From Chiloscyllium plagiosum (Eukaryota): 36,900 bases of DNA. The notes below the pieces were generated by a model, which was not told the DNA's origin, did no database searches, and was given only the letters and a program-made list of their open reading frames with translations. A program made the translations under genes and the position numbers. Of the stretch, positions 4,176 to 36,763 are shown in pieces. The stretch spans positions 501,449 to 538,348 of the forward strand of contig NC_057752.1 in NCBI RefSeq assembly GCF_004010195.1, in the 5' to 3' direction. Every line of letters begins with the position of its first letter. Position 1 is the stretch's first letter.

Positions 4176-5061
4176 CATTTAATAGGCACTTTGGTAGATG
4201 TGCCTCACAAATGCAAGTTATTATGAAAAACACAAGCTTTTCCACATGTGCAGTTGAGTTTGTTCAGCAAGTGAAACTGACATCCTACCCAATATGCGAG
4301 TCAGTTCCACAGCACAGAAATCTCTTGGGCAATATTCCAATCCCATTCCTTCAAGCAATTCAATAACATAAATACAGCATTCAAGGCAGCTAAGCTCTCA
4401 CCCACCGCCCCCACACTTTGACAAGGATTGCAAAAGCATCCTATCAGTTAGAACAGATTCTTTCCTAGTTTGTGGTTTTAAGTACAGCTGTAAATTTAAC
4501 TGGAGGTAAGGAAAAGCCAAAAAATGGACAGGAAAAGGAAAACAGGGAGAAAAGGAAGAAAATATGAAAGGGGACAAAAATGTTGCAAATAAAAAGGGTG
4601 AGAAAAGAATTATGTACAAGGTTTTAAAACCAGTGTATTTAGGGAGCATGAAGATACATGGGTAAACAGCCAACTTTACATTATATAAAACTCACAAATT
4701 CACACACACACACGCAACAACTATGACACAGTGCACATAAATATTTACAGCATTGTCACTAACCAATCTCCAGATTTTGGCATTTCTGTTAAAAGACAAG
4801 TGGCAGGATGAGGTGATATGGTTACATCTACAAATTGCAGTAATTGTTTCAATCTCTTCTCTCTCTTCCATCTCTGAAAAGCATTGACATGACAGTGATA
4901 TGTTCAACACTGCCTTCTGCTACCTCACCCAGGTAGCCATTCTTTCTCTGCAAACCTCACAGCAGACAACACTTTTAACTTGGACAGAGACACAAGTGAC
5001 AAGTGGCCATTATAAACACAATCCAATCAAATTGGTCTATTGACTTGAATCAAAAGGAACA

Positions 5062-6137
5062 TTTGATCACACAGCACTGCCCTTTGATGTGAAGGGCAGT
5101 GTTTGTCACTGGCCACCCGGGTGTTTTCCTATCTTCCTGGTGGTGGAAATTGAATAAAGATTCGTGCACTTTGTGTCTCTCACTGTGTCTCCCACCTGTA
5201 CACACACACACCATGGGTTCTGGGGATAAAATAAGCACTACCGCACTTAGGTGGTAGTGTGGGGGTTAAAAGAGAAAAAAATAAACAGCAGTGTTCCCTA
5301 CCCTCCCCTTCACTGTTTTGATCACACAGCACTGCCCTTTGATGTGAAGGGCAGTGTTTGTCACTGGCCACCCGGGTGTTTTTCCTATCTTCCTGTGGTG
5401 GAATTTGAATAAAGATTCGTGCACTTTGTGTCTCTCACTGTGTCTCACTCCTACATCCACACACCATGGGTGCTGGGGATAAAATAAACACTACCGCACT
5501 TAGGTGGTAGTGTGGGGGTTAAAGGAAAAAAAAAGAACTATATAAAAAAATACAGGAGATTCCTACCCTCCCCTTCACTGTTTTAAAAAAAAAATAAAAT
5601 AAATGGGACATTAGAGGTGGGCGCCGCAGGATAAAAAAAAATCAAAAGGAACATTTGATCACACAGCACTGCCCTTTGATGTGAAGGGCAGTGTTTGTCA
5701 CTGGCCACCCGGGTGTTTTCCTATCTTCCTAGTGGTGGAATTTGAATAAAGATTCATGCACTTTGTGTCTTTCACTGTGTCTCACACCTGCACACACACA
5801 CCACGGGTGCTGGGGAAAAATATAAGCACTACCGCACTTAGGTGGTAGTGTGGGGGTTAAAAGAGAAAAAAAAAACAGCAGTGTTCCCTACCCTCCCCTT
5901 CACTGTTTTGATCACACAGCACTGCCCTTTGTTGTGAAGGGCAGTGTTTGTCACTGGCCACCCGGGTGTTTTCCTATCTTCCTGGTGGTGGAAATTGAAT
6001 AAAGATTCGTGCACCTTGTGTCTCTCACTGTGTCTCACACCTGCACACACACACACCATGGGTGCTCGGGAAAAATAAGCACTTCCGCAGCTAGGCAGTA
6101 GTGTGGGGGTTTAAAAAAAAATAAACAGGGAAAAAAA
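5062..6137 (+). repeat. Array of four ~250-bp monomers (two dimers) of a poly(A)-tailed retroposed unit, possibly a Tx1-type LINE 3' UTR
   Basis: Monomers start tttgatcacacagcactgccc at 5062, 5317, 5654 and 5907. Each has AATAAA plus a GT-rich tract, two hairpins and an A-rich tail. The 14-mer aatcaaaaggaaca lies at 5048-5061, 5640-5653 and 6138-6151. The family name is from recall only. Confidence 0.85.
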
Positions 6138-6417
6138 AATCAAAAGGAACAATAGTTCCAGGGAGAGGAAAACTGGTGGCTAATCCAACTGTCTTATATC
6201 CCTTCCAAAGTTGAAAGCTTTGCCCCACTTCAGCAGACCACATGACTGTAGATGGGATCACAGACAGGCCTGGATTTTATCCAAATCAAACAAAACACAC
6301 AGACACCATTTCCACATTCCAGTTACAGAAGAGTGATCAGGAGATGGGTGCCTTAGTTGAATTTTCCTCTGCTTAATCCAGAGAGGTGAGCACAGATCAA
6401 AAAAACAAAAAGGGGAC

Positions 6418-6649
6418 TATAGTGATTGTAACAAGGTCAGCCAGCTGGACCTCACAGAATATGAGTTCCCTTATTGGGGCTGTTAATCAGGTTCTATCAG
6501 GGAGCCCTGGCTGACATAGAAAAAGGGTTAGTGTCAGAGATGCTGACACTCTGCCTGACTCTAAGAGGCAGTACTATAGTCAAGGACTGTTCATGTGTAA
6601 ATAGAGGATGACTTGGTGATGGGATGCCAGCCTCTGTGGAGTTATTTCA
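6418..6649 (+). mobile_element. Solo LTR (~232 bp), LTR retrotransposon
   Basis: Begins tatagtgattgtaa (TG in the other copy) and ends gagttatttCA. Perfect 5-bp TSD GGGAC (6413-6417 / 6650-6654). Second copy at 15328-15561. Confidence 0.8.
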
Positions 6650-6759
6650 GGGACTTTCCTTGCTATGTGAGCTCAGTATTACATACAGGTATTTATTTCT
6701 TTATTTAGCCAAAGGAAGTGATGATCAATTACTTTTCTTTAAAACATAAACTATGATTC

Positions 6760-13312: not shown

Positions 13313-13663
13313 CTGGTCTGGTCCCTGGAAACAGATCCTGCACAATGGGCTCTCCGTGCTACTGAGAGACACCGAGTCCATCCCCGTCTGGAGGGGCGCA
13401 TTCCTCTCCTTCTCTTCCTGTCCCCCTCCAGCTCCGGCACCTTCCGTCCCGTAACAATCCTCGTCGGCCTGGGACGAGCAATTGGGGAACGGAGGCCAGC
13501 CGCATCCCGAACCAGCCAGCCGCCCTCCTCCTCCTTCCTCTTCTCCTTCCCTCCTCTGGCCCGTTTCTAAATCCTGCTCGCTCCTTTGCATCGTAAAAGA
13601 TCTCATCAAAACCAGCACTTTTAGGTCATTGAAAACCATGCGGATGTGATACTTAAACATCAT
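13313..13663 (-). CDS. MARCHF9: First coding exon of a MARCHF9-like membrane RING-CH E3 ubiquitin ligase (117 codons; remaining exons not found in the window)
   Basis: The translation MMFKYHIRMVFNDLKVLVLMRS...GSGCGWPPFPNCSSQADEDCYGTE...DSVSLSS..PLCRICFQGPDQ matches MARCHF9 hallmarks (RMFLNELKLLVL, GCGWAPF..CS, DEEEYYGSE, CRICFQGPEQ). It ends at a phase-0 donor CAG|GTACAG (GT = 13312-13311), just before where GELLSPC would follow. Confidence 0.9.
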
Positions 13664-15327: not shown

Positions 15328-15561
15328 TGTAGTGATTGTAATGAGGTCAGCCAGGTGGACCTCATAGAATATGAGTTCCTGACTGGCGCTGTTAATCTGA
15401 TCCAATCAGGGAGCCCTGGCTGACAGGTAAGAACAGGAGTATCAGACATCCTGTTTATTGTGAGAGCTGGCTCCGAGGGAGCTGGATCAGTGTCAAGTAC
15501 TTTGCATGTGTAGATAAAGGGTGACTTGGTGACAGTGAACTGGCCTCGTGGAGTTATTTCA
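15328..15561 (+). mobile_element. Solo LTR, same family as 6418-6649
   Basis: TGtagtgattgtaatgaggtcagcc...gagttatttCA; flanks aagac / gggac (imperfect TSD). Confidence 0.8.
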
Positions 15562-15711
15562 GGGACAATATGACCTCACTGCCCAAATAACACATTATCC
15601 AGGGGTAGATTTCTGTCGTCAGCATTCCATGCGCAATGGATATGTAGGCAGTCTAAAAATGGCAAGTTGTTTTCTGCCACACTGAAATTGTTTAATTTCT
15701 CTTTGAACTAT

Positions 15712-21499: not shown

Positions 21500-23705
21500 C
21501 CATGACCTTCAGCATTCAGTTCCGTCACTCTTATTACACAGTGGCAGCAGTGACTACCATCTATAAACCACCCTACAGGAACTCATGGAAGCTCCTTTAA
21601 TAGCACCTTCCAAAAAGGCCTGGGACAGGGGAGTACATCAGTACCCAATAGCTGGGCAACCTGCTGACCTCACATTGGGTGCATTGCACTGTGCTTGGGT
21701 TGGGGCAGAGCTGGGGACATGGGACATGAGCAACTTTGGGGCCTGTGATTTCAGTCCCTGCTCTAGCTTTCAAACTCAAAACCTCTTCCACCTGGAAAGA
21801 CAAGGGCAGCCGATGCATAGGGACACTGTCAGTTGCAAATTCCCCTCTGAGCTACACACGAGCCTGACTAGGAACTATATTGGGAGAAAGTGAGGACTGC
21901 AGATGCTGGAGATCAGAGTCAAAAAGTGTGGTGCTGGAAAAGCACAGCAGGTGAGGCAGCATCTGAGGAGCAGGAGAGTCAACGTTTGATAGTTCAGAGC
22001 AGAGGGTGGAGCAAATAGATGGAAAGGAAGATGGACAGGTGGGAGAAGTTCAAGAGAGTGGTGCCAAGTGTGAGGTTTGGATCTGGGATAAGGTGGTGGA
22101 GGGAAGATGAGGAAACTGGTGAAGTCGACATTGATGCCGTGTGGTTAGAGGGTCCTGAGGCAGAAGACAAGGTGTTCTTCCTCCAGTTGTCAGTGGCTTG
22201 GATTTGGCAGTGGAGGAGGCCCAGGACTTGCATGTCCTTGGCAGAGTGGGAGGGGGAGTTGAAGTGGTTGGCCACAGGGCGGTGGGGTTGTTTGGTGCGT
22301 GTGTCCTGGAGATGTTCTCTGAAACTTTTCGCAAGTTGGTGTCCTGTCTCCCCAATGTAGAGGAGACCACATCGGGAGCAACGGACACAGAGGATTAGGT
22401 GTTTGGATGTGCAGGAAAATCTCTGCCGGATGTGAAAGGATCCTTTAGGGCCTTGGACTGAGATGAGTGGGGTGGTTTGGATGCAGATTTTACACCTCTT
22501 GCAGCGGCAAGGGAAGGTGCCAGGAGTGGAGGGTGGGTTGGTGGGGGGTCGCATGGACCTAAGGAGGGTGTCGTGGAGGGAATGGTCTCTGTGGAATGCT
22601 GATAGGGGTGGGGAGGGAAATATATCTCTGGTGGTGGGGTCTGACTGGACGTGGCAGAAATGGTAGAAAATGATGCATTGTATCCAGAGATTGCTGGCAT
22701 GGAAGGTGAGGAACGGGGTGGGGGTTCTATCCTTGTTGAGATTGGAGGGGTGGGGTTCAAGGGCGAGGTGCGCGAAGTGGAGGAGATGCGCTGGAGGGCA
22801 TTGTTGACTACGTGGGAGGGGAAATTGTGGTCCTTGAAGTGGGAGGCTATCTGGGATGTTCTGGAGTGGAATTGGTCCTCCTAGGAGCAGATGCGGTGGT
22901 GGAGGTGGAGAAATTTGGAGTCGGGGATAGCATTTTTACAGGAGGGGAGGTGGGAAGAGGTGTAGTCCAGGTAGCTGTGGGAGTCGGTGGGTTTGAAGTA
23001 AATATCTGTGCTAAGTCGGTTGCTGGAAATGGAGATGGAGAGGTCCGGGAAGGGGAGGGAGGTATCCGAGATGGTCCAGGTAAACTTGAGGTCAGGGTGG
23101 AAGGTGTTCATGAAGTTGATGAACTGCTCTACCTCCCCATGGGAGCATGAGCTGGCACCGATACAGTCATCAGTGTAACAGAGGAAAAGGTGGTGAATGA
23201 GATGGACTGTTCCATGTACCCAATGAAGAAGCAGGCATAGCTGGGGCTCATGCAGGTGCCCATGGCTACCCTTTTCGTCTGAGAGAAGCGTGAGGATTAG
23301 AAGGTGAAGTTGTTGAGGGTGAGGACCAGTTCAGCTAATTGAATGAGTGTGTTGGTGGAGGGGTACTATTTGGGTCGGCGGGAGATGAAGAAACGGGCGG
23401 GGGGGGGGGGGTTGGAGGCCTTTGTCATGGCGGATGGATGTGTACAGGGACTGGATGTCCATTTAAAGATGAGGTATTGGGGACTGGGAAACCAAAAGAC
23501 ACAGAGGAGGTGGATGGCGTGGGTGGCCATTCCTTTACTGTTGCTGGGTCAAATCCTGAAATGCTATTCTTAACAGCACTATGGAAGTATCTTACCAGAT
23601 ACACTGCAGTGATTCAAGAAGGCAGCTCACAGACTTCTCAAAGATAATTGGAAATGGGCTATAAATTCTGCCCTTGAGCGATGTTTGTGACTCATAAATG
23701 AATAA
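21500..23705 (+). mobile_element. LINE 3' end (21500-21882 and 23527-23705) split by the Penelope insertion
   Basis: ...cctgactaggaactatat | ...gccattcctttactgttgctgggtcaaatcctg is contiguous in the paralogous copy at 32128-32180 (cctgacttgggaatatgtcgctgtttcttcagtatcgccaggccaaaatcct). Confidence 0.7.
21883..23526 (-). mobile_element. Penelope retroelement, 5'-truncated; RT plus GIY-YIG endonuclease pseudogene
   Basis: Minus strand: VAMGTCMSPSYA (RT, ~23235-23270), NTFHPDLKFTWTISDTSLPFPDL..YFKPTDSHSYLDYTSSH (22881-23111), and GTFPCRCKRCKIC..FSCTSKHLILCVRCSRCGLLYIGETG..EH..PVANHFN (GIY-YIG, 21994-22554). The pLTR terminus is at 21885-21985. Confidence 0.95.
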
Positions 23706-30785: not shown

Positions 30786-31150
30786 ATCAAGGTTTTGTAT
30801 CTGTTTCAAGGTGAACAAGGGTCTGGTATTTGGGTCTAGGTGATTCAAGACCTTGTGTGTGAGTCAAAGTGAATTTTGTATTTGTGTTAATGTGAACCTG
30901 GATCTTACATTTGTGTCAACGTGAATCAGGATCATGTGTTTCAGGCAAAGTGAATCAGGAAACTATTTGAGTTAAGTTGAACAAGAGCCTGTATTTGTGC
31001 CAAGAGGAACCAGAGTCTGGTACTTGAGTCAAGAGGAATCAGGTTCTTATACCTGAGACAAGAGGAACCAGAGTCTGGTACTTAAGTCAAGAGGAACCAA
31101 GGTCTTGTACTTGAAACAAGAGGAACCAGGGTCTTGTACTTGAGTTAAGA
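30786..31150 (+). repeat. 29-bp minisatellite (~12 units), consensus ~GTACTTGAGTCAAGAGGAACCAGGGTCTT
   Basis: Regular 29-nt period, clearest in 31020-31150. The left-hand units are degenerate (e.g. gtatttgtgttaatgtgaacctggatctt). Confidence 0.9.
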
Positions 31151-32696: not shown

Positions 32697-33138
32697 NNNN
32701 NNNNNNNNNNNNNNNNNNNNNNNNNNNNNNNNNNNNNNNNNNNNNNNNNNNNNNNNNNNNNNNNNNNNNNNNNNNNNNNNNNNNNNNNNNNNNNNNNNNN
32801 NNNNNNNNNNNNNNNNNNNNNNNNNNNNNNNNNNNNNNNNNNNNNNNNNNNNNNNNNNNNNNNNNNNNNNNNNNNNNNNNNNNNNNNNNNNNNNNNNNNN
32901 NNNNNNNNNNNNNNNNNNNNNNNNNNNNNNNNNNNNNNNNNNNNNNNNNNNNNNNNNNNNNNNNNNNNNNNNNNNNNNNNNNNNNNNNNNNNNNNNNNNN
33001 NNNNNNNNNNNNNNNNNNNNNNNNNNNNNNNNNNNNNNNNNNNNNNNNNNNNNNNNNNNNNNNNNNNNNNNNNNNNNNNNNNNNNNNNNNNNNNNNNNNN
33101 NNNNNNNNNNNNNNNNNNNNNNNNNNNNNNNNNNNNNN
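32697..33138. other. Assembly gap (442 N)
   Basis: Run of n. Confidence 1.
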
Positions 33139-36654: not shown

Positions 36655-36763
36655 CTCAGGTTGTTGAATTTGAGTCAACAGAAACTAGATTCTTGTACTT
36701 GAGACAAGAGGAACCAAGGACTTGTACATAAGATATGAGGAACCAGAGTTTTGTATTTGAGAT
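36655..36763 (+). repeat. Second block of the 29-bp minisatellite (~4 units), abutting a PLE terminus
   Basis: ttcttgtacttgagacaagaggaaccaaggacttgtac..gaggaaccagagttttgtatttgag has the same unit as 30786-31150. Confidence 0.85.

Follow-up and report, generated by a model that had tools for sequence, protein, structure and literature searches.

The window analysed here, a 36,900-nucleotide stretch of Chiloscyllium plagiosum DNA, contains an array built of four units of about 205 bp each (M1 to M4) and three copies of a 14-bp sequence, T (AATCAAAAGGAACA). A scan of all 36,900 bases placed exact copies of T at 5048, 5640 and 6138, and no other site in the window matched with two or fewer mismatches. 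At that tolerance shuffled sequences gave a mean of 0.80 matches and reached three in 2 of 100 cases; all three of the real matches are exact. The units share the same 12 initial letters, at 5062, 5317, 5654 and 5907. The layout proposed in an initial annotation of this DNA, T-M1-M2-extra-polyA-T-M3-M4-polyA-T, was thus recovered with its three exact T copies and four units (Table 1), and so were its details. Both dimers start at the identical base (M1 at 5062 and M3 at 5654), the junction after M1 equals that after M3 at 34 of 35 letters with the sole mismatch within the A-run, and the tails of M2 and M4 are unlike, at 132 versus 38 nt. The real starts of M2 and M4 lie 22 nt further 5', at 5295 and 5885, because the later half of the junction already belongs to the element.

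Table 1. Parts of the array and the neighbouring LTR-like repeat, in window positions.
Feature	Position (strand)	Basis or remark
T1, left copy of the target-site duplication (TSD)	5048..5061 (+), maybe 1-2 nt longer	6153 directly follows 5062 in a contig of organism B
M1, 5'-truncated LINE 3' UTR from UTR position 23	5062..5267 (+)	
5' hairpin within the UTR (stem of 13 bp), almost unchanged across the four copies	5073..5103 (+)	folding
3' hairpin directly before the G-run and A-tail	5235..5260 (+)	folding; decayed in M4 (6079-6104)
M1 A-tail	5268..5280 (+)	sequence; RNA reads enter A-tails here
Spacer S1, 14 nt, target-site-like (ATAAACAGCAGTGT)	5281..5294 (+)	putative TSD brought from another locus
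M2, entire 3' UTR from the first post-stop base	5295..5520 (+)	letters upstream end in TAG (X1, X21)
M2 A-rich tail and spacer S2 (about 5548-5560)	5521..5560 (+)	
F1, initial ~24 nt of a further 3' UTR copy, directly joined to an A-tail	5561..5584 (+)	
A-tail and spacer S3 (5599-5612, 14 nt)	5585..5612 (+)	
F2 (the 'extra'), a 19-nt piece from the coding end of this LINE's RNA, RWAPQ in one frame	5613..5631 (+)	
Terminal A-tail of the first stack	5632..5639 (+)	sequence
T2, middle TSD copy	5640..5653 (+)	exact match
M3 (from UTR position 23) and A-tail	5654..5870 (+)	
Spacer S1', identical to S1	5871..5884 (+)	
M4, entire 3' UTR cut at the stop codon, the most decayed of the four	5885..6112 (+)	
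A-tail, partial spacer S4 (ATAAACAGG, 6121-6129), second A-tail	6113..6137 (+)	joined to right flank (X1, X5)
T3, right TSD copy	6138..6151 (+)	exact match
LTR-like repeat, uninterrupted copy	6418..6654 (+), right end +/-5 nt	TATA site decayed (about 6515-6535)

Substitutions among the units had been described as scattered. The copies do differ, but the spread is uneven: the first 65 of 206 positions hold only one of the 21 substitution columns (binomial p 0.004, the true p being weaker because some columns are adjacent pairs). This nearly substitution-free stretch, 5062-5126 and its equivalents, contains the 5' hairpin, which has a predicted energy of -20.3 kcal/mol and a z of -6.1 against mononucleotide shuffles; selection on the hairpin in source copies is possible. 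The 3' hairpin has a z of -5.4 in M1 versus -0.8 in M4. The short pieces F1 and F2 (19-24 nt) could each be an internal deletion at a short stretch matching either the A-rich region at UTR 189 or the normal 3' end, and the 3' limit of F1 is the UTR position where M1 and M3 start.

To compare this locus with other material, four of the 24 public runs listed were aligned to positions 4700-6500. Organism A supplied two of the contig sets and the poly(A) RNA reads, and organism B supplied a third contig set. The left and right outer junctions are both present in the two further organism A runs, with contigs covering 4726-5077 and 6101-6339 in X1 and 4700-5077 and 6100-6447 in X5. At 5037 and 6168 the contigs across these junctions carry other letters than the window and therefore come from a haplotype other than the window's own. 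None of the best 24 of 51,890 alignment rows spans the middle T or the M2 tail, and both rest on the assembly. By comparison, a contig of organism B (X9) aligns from 4700 to 5062 and resumes directly at 6153-6338, which is the empty site with one T. Because that empty site holds a single T, the sequence is a genuine target-site duplication, which supports the earlier proposal of an insertion by target-primed reverse transcription. The next base in organism B is the letter T, and the TSD is possibly 15-16 nt long, sharing a short microhomology of T letters with the unit. Between the window and organism B the flanks differ at 10 of about 549 bases (1.8%), and the 1.09-kb insert is young. The alignment of the organism B contig ends at 6338 with 69 letters remaining, so organism B differs from the window within 6339-6407.

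Read depth indicates what the units belong to. In all three contig runs the summed depth on the units was 1e5-1e6 versus 7-25 on the flanks, which does not give a copy number. Because unit depth so far exceeds flank depth, the LINE-tail family must be very abundant in both organisms. Upstream of 5295 and 5885, reads go on into letters that are absent from the window. This holds for 26 and 30 contigs of X1 and for 20 of X5, and 95 and 191 RNA reads extend 5' of the two positions, respectively. By eye, the 30 letters upstream of these positions are nine sense codons followed by TAG, which was seen in X1, in X5 and in the RNA reads, and a 3' UTR therefore starts with the 22 nt at 5295-5316. M2 and M4 are entire UTRs cut at the stop codon, and M1 and M3 begin at UTR position 23. 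In 53 RNA reads the sequence continues upstream past 5613 as an open frame leading into RWAPQ, and the frames before 5295/5885 and before 5613 are probably one frame, of which six codons lie within the window. The joint from 5630 to 5295 was seen in 52 RNA reads with 35 starts. First mates of the RNA reads fall mostly on the minus strand (for example 137.6 versus 8.8 in the bin 5066-5126), which fits plus-strand poly(A) RNA. Across the family the A-tail sits at a fixed 3' end and the 5' truncation is variable; some A-tails occur at inner positions too.

These data support, with high confidence, the idea that the four units are 3' ends of an abundant LINE, and the suggestion that the unit might be a LINE 3' UTR is borne out by reads that continue into a coding frame ending in TAG. 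The LINE is likely of the Tx1 type; the coding end in the reads recalls what we take to be the C-terminus of ORF2 of Xenopus Tx1L. An exact-pattern scan of viral contigs, metagenome contigs and prokaryote genomes found no stretch with the unit motifs.

We also asked where copies of the family start. From 370 joints the best 12 were analysed; three were tail-internal or A-run slips and were dropped, and in the other nine an A-tail with spacer, or the LTR-like repeat, is joined to a UTR start. In this biased sample the starts were at UTR positions 0, 20, 28, 32, 34, 41, 53, 108 and 112, all distinct, with none at 23 and five of the nine within 20-41. Starts vary across the family, and it therefore has no defined 5' end. 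The initial annotation had considered a non-autonomous multimeric retroposon with a defined 5' end, which does not agree with these variable starts or with the copies that reach the coding end in 95 and 191 RNA reads. It had also named two observations that together would refute its reading, the second of them pointing to a simple local duplication. One was found, variable 5' truncation of a LINE 3' UTR; the other, a grouping of M1 with M3 and of M2 with M4, appears in none of the 21 substitution columns.

A spacer of 13-14 nt lies between each A-tail and the next piece (S1, S1', S2 and S3, with S4 partial), and these spacers bear on the choice of target. By eye, an S1-like spacer is present in five of eight head-to-tail joints among the best 12 of 370, and one joint in the same set leads from the LTR-like repeat at 6491 through a TATA motif to 5071. 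In reads, the LTR-like repeat family begins at 6420/6421. T itself is located in single-copy DNA and matches the spacer motif at 8 of the first 10 letters, a match equalled at 61 of 73,800 window sites. From these sequence comparisons, the LINE appears to prefer the TATA site of the LTR-like repeat and to stack there, and T looks like a degenerate version of that site. The preference is seen as a recurrent spacer motif and one LTR joint in the best 12 of 370 rows; as a comparison, the criterion given in the available part of Kojima (2015; PMC4494074) is more than 20% of flanks of one type. The inner spacers were not made at this site, because they differ from T, and read-through of stacks at other loci would be their simplest source. 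Joints between stacked pieces listed among the best 12 of 370 have depths of 65-250 versus 7-25 in single-copy DNA, and some stack junctions are therefore multi-copy. An S1-type junction is covered in organism B as well (position 5289, 18 contigs, with another letter) even though organism B is without the insertion. Spacer S3 is closer to T and the next two T letters than to S1 (12 of 15 by eye).

The window holds a second uninterrupted LTR-like copy at 15330-15562, which is 76% alike to the copy in Table 1, and the TATA site has decayed in both. Both copies are preceded by GAC and end in TTTCAGGGAC, and either the end of the repeat includes GGGAC or the repeat has a site preference of its own. 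A 5-bp TSD for the copy at 6418 was set aside, since both window copies end in GGGAC, which is possibly element sequence. The idea that this copy, 266 bp downstream of the array, acts as a tethering signal was dropped, since the copy at 15330-15562 indicates that the family is dense here.

With moderate confidence, we propose that LINE-tail stacks from two source RNAs were inserted sequentially at one degenerate site. A poly(A) LINE with a preference for a 14-nt TATA-like site in the LTR-like repeat would regenerate its target site at each insertion and so give rise to head-to-tail stacks. Transcripts reading through one tail into the next stacked pieces would carry the old TSDs as spacers, a putative 3' transduction. 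In L1-type 3' transduction a read-through flank is carried along with a second A-tail, as here; unlike in L1, the carried flank here consists of more copies of the same LINE tail and old TSDs. Two such RNAs, probably from related but distinct source loci, would have been copied into T by target-primed reverse transcription in two successive events in unique DNA, leaving T-stack1-T-stack2-T. The common 5' truncation base may reflect a 1-2-nt T microhomology at the target together with the sole T-run in the start-prone zone. UTR 16-43 has a single T-run, the TTTT at 22-25, and the coincident start of both dimers is explicable because the target end offers T and this is the only T-run where five of the nine listed starts fall. 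The complement of T has a 7-nt match at 4 of 218 UTR positions, 5317 among them, a weak observation noticed post hoc; such pairing between T and the RNA may aid 5' joining.

Whether one template or two supplied the dimers was judged from their divergence. The dimers differ from each other at 23 of 441 sites (5.2%) versus the 10 of about 549 (1.8%) between the flanks of the two organisms (Fisher p 0.004); against the upper 95% limit of the flank rate, which comes from one contig, p is 0.03. CpG-type changes make up 2 of the 22 core differences. Two templates are favoured because duplicates made after the two organisms split are expected to be about 1.8% apart or less, and this divergence, together with the lack of any grouping column, supports the first of the two options in the initial annotation, two hits at one site, over plain duplication. 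It is possible, but not probable, that a single transduced stack was inserted once and then duplicated by unequal exchange between T copies, with conversion and tail deletion following later. Such a duplication would account at once for the common start base, the A-tail pattern and the junction, and CAGGA flanks, at both ends, the tail-1 segment that is missing from tail 2. Four marks are common to both dimers: the start base, the A-tail pattern, S1 with C at 5289, and the truncation at the stop codon; C at 5289 is a minority letter, the alternative letter making up 71-83% of depth. Against duplication in place stand the 5.2% difference between dimers, when the flanks have diverged by 1.8% since before the insertion, and the 0 of 21 columns that group M1 with M3 or M2 with M4. 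In addition, tail 2 does not align to tail 1 as a simple deletion, and its ATAAACAGG is nearer to S1 than the spacer of tail 1 is. At 6067, 6084 and 6091 M4 departs from the letter carried by 98-99.6% of family depth, which exceeds what local age permits; these rare letters and the broken 3' hairpin are as expected for an old passenger copy. Gene conversion could mimic two templates.

Two templates might also have been joined in a single event, in which the reverse transcriptase copied one RNA and then the single-stranded T overhang, so recreating the original primer end, and primed on a second RNA before joining. No second cut would be required to explain the three exact copies of T, the common start and the differing templates. 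The tiny F1 and F2 pieces suggest jumps or slips, and template jumping onto target DNA is a route proposed for 5' joining in the available text of PMC2912911. We nonetheless think it unlikely: the S1 junction is found at other loci and in organism B, so no jump is needed here, and sequential insertion has a precedent in the portion of PMC4494074 at hand. In a variant of template jumping, some spacers may be short target pieces at RNA 3' ends that were joined by jumps, instead of products of read-through stacks.

A different role for the spacers is conceivable, in which a LINE tail cut at its stop codon lands at the TATA box of the LTR, and the TATA retained in the TSD and an initiator-like site in the UTR form a Pol II promoter that drives a short non-autonomous RNA with a fixed start through the stack. 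TTCACT at 5309 (+1 A at 5312), 32 nt past the TATA, is the only match within 5280-5330 to BBCABW, which we take to be the initiator consensus. Clustering of five of nine family starts at UTR 20-41 in the best 12 of 370 joints points the same way, and target-driven transcription has been proposed for SINEU (PMC4494074, in part). However, both dimers begin at +6, 5 nt past the predicted start, and not at +1, the nine starts among the best 12 of 370 joints are all different, and 286 RNA reads continue into the coding end. No pile-up of molecule starts was seen, although 3'-type single-cell reads cannot show a start. Such a promoter is very unlikely. An extended form, in which a TATA-aimed LINE gives its tails a promoter, stacks are re-mobilised as fixed-start Pol II SINE-like multimers and RNA-overhang pairing sets the 5' junction, is quite unlikely; in that case both dimers of the array would derive from such RNAs.

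That the array is a retrozyme-like or SINE-like multimeric unit which defines its own 5' end, for instance by self-cleavage and circularisation, is scarcely credible and largely refuted, even though a unit length of 253-255 nt lies within the range given for metazoan non-LTR retrozymes in the available part of PMC7761336 and F1 stops where M1 and M3 begin, since the sequence runs on into the coding end, whole-unit folding is no better than shuffles (z -0.83), and searches for ribozymes, A/B boxes and tRNA genes were negative. Rfam returned six weak matches (best E 0.14) and no family near threshold. The absence of a hammerhead noted initially was confirmed, as no type I hammerhead was found in the repeats with exact and one-mismatch cores on both strands of 5040-6160. 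Scans for hammerhead, hairpin, twister, pistol and HDV-like motifs and for an A/B box, with a crude HDV descriptor lacking a positive control, found none. ARAGORN found 0 tRNA genes, and Rfam, ARAGORN and the motif scan together found no tRNA, 5S or 7SL head with an internal promoter. With these results and the variable starts, the suggestion of a retrozyme-like unit or an undescribed SINE was not upheld. Readings as a Helitron, Crypton, DIRS or Penelope element were dropped given the empty site, the A-tails and the coding end.

Sequential insertion at one site, the history we favour, makes the array a tidy case of known LINE behaviour and not a new type of mobile RNA. In the part of Kojima (2015; PMC4494074) available, tandem copies of SINEU-3 that sandwich the TSD are explained by sequential insertion and are not treated as a subfamily, and crocodilian families such as Tx1-8_Crp and Tx1-4_AMi indicate that some Tx1 families target LTR elements. 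Our LINE resembles Tx1-8_Crp, Tx1-4_AMi and SINEU-3, as portrayed there, in being a poly(A) non-LTR element with a target site in another transposon and TSD-sandwiching tandems. Unlike the crocodilian Tx1 and SINEU cases in that text, the array here lies in unique DNA at a degenerate site, its halves have foreign inner spacers, and it has no U1/U2 head. Like Tx1L of Xenopus laevis, it involves a sequence-choosing LINE with another transposon as its target; unlike Tx1L, the target here would be the TATA site of an LTR-like repeat and not Tx1D, and specificity looks relaxed (PMC1950540, in the part available). The 14-16-bp TSD, the A-tail and the 5' truncation with short microhomology are like those of L1, where, according to the accessible section of PMC2912911, nearly 80% of 5'-truncated copies show microhomology. 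Metazoan non-LTR retrozymes, which the part of PMC7761336 available defines by tandem type I hammerheads, likewise consist of 150-300-bp units in tandem that themselves encode nothing. By contrast with that account, the array here has no hammerhead, its 5' extents vary, A-tails and target-like spacers lie between the units, and it is contiguous with a LINE coding end. No description of Tx1 target sequences in sharks was found in a literature search that left most subscription papers and Repbase outside, and the family is not thereby undescribed.

The locus is young and datable, being empty in a relative about 1.8% diverged, and records how stacks of a target-choosing LINE may be copied to unique DNA with old target sites included. 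On the favoured history it shows that an off-target site can be hit twice. For annotators it is a warning that such stacks should not be labelled dimeric SINEs, and it is of use in tracing source loci. Promoter capture, if true, would show how target specificity can lead to a new non-autonomous family, something only proposed for SINEU in the available part of PMC4494074.

The surroundings of the array are repeat-rich animal DNA. Pfam searches on ten window ORFs found reverse transcriptase and endonuclease pieces in three, none of them tied to the LINE family. On the minus strand at 13313-13460 there is an exon-like stretch that ends in SPLCRICFQGPDQ followed by GT, with 0 Pfam families. It resembles the start of a RING-CH (MARCH) domain, and an intron of that RING-CH-like gene may hold the array in antisense orientation. 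Decayed frames at 21994-23330 (minus), with 0 Pfam families for three ORFs, are in our assumption Penelope-like reverse transcriptase and GIY-YIG-like. An assembly gap of 442 N at 32697-33138 shows that the assembly is scaffolded. A 29-bp tandem repeat family occurs at 30967-31150 and 36692-36763, and a palindrome of about 930 bp at 1751-2687 has arms that are 91-94% complementary around a 6-nt centre.
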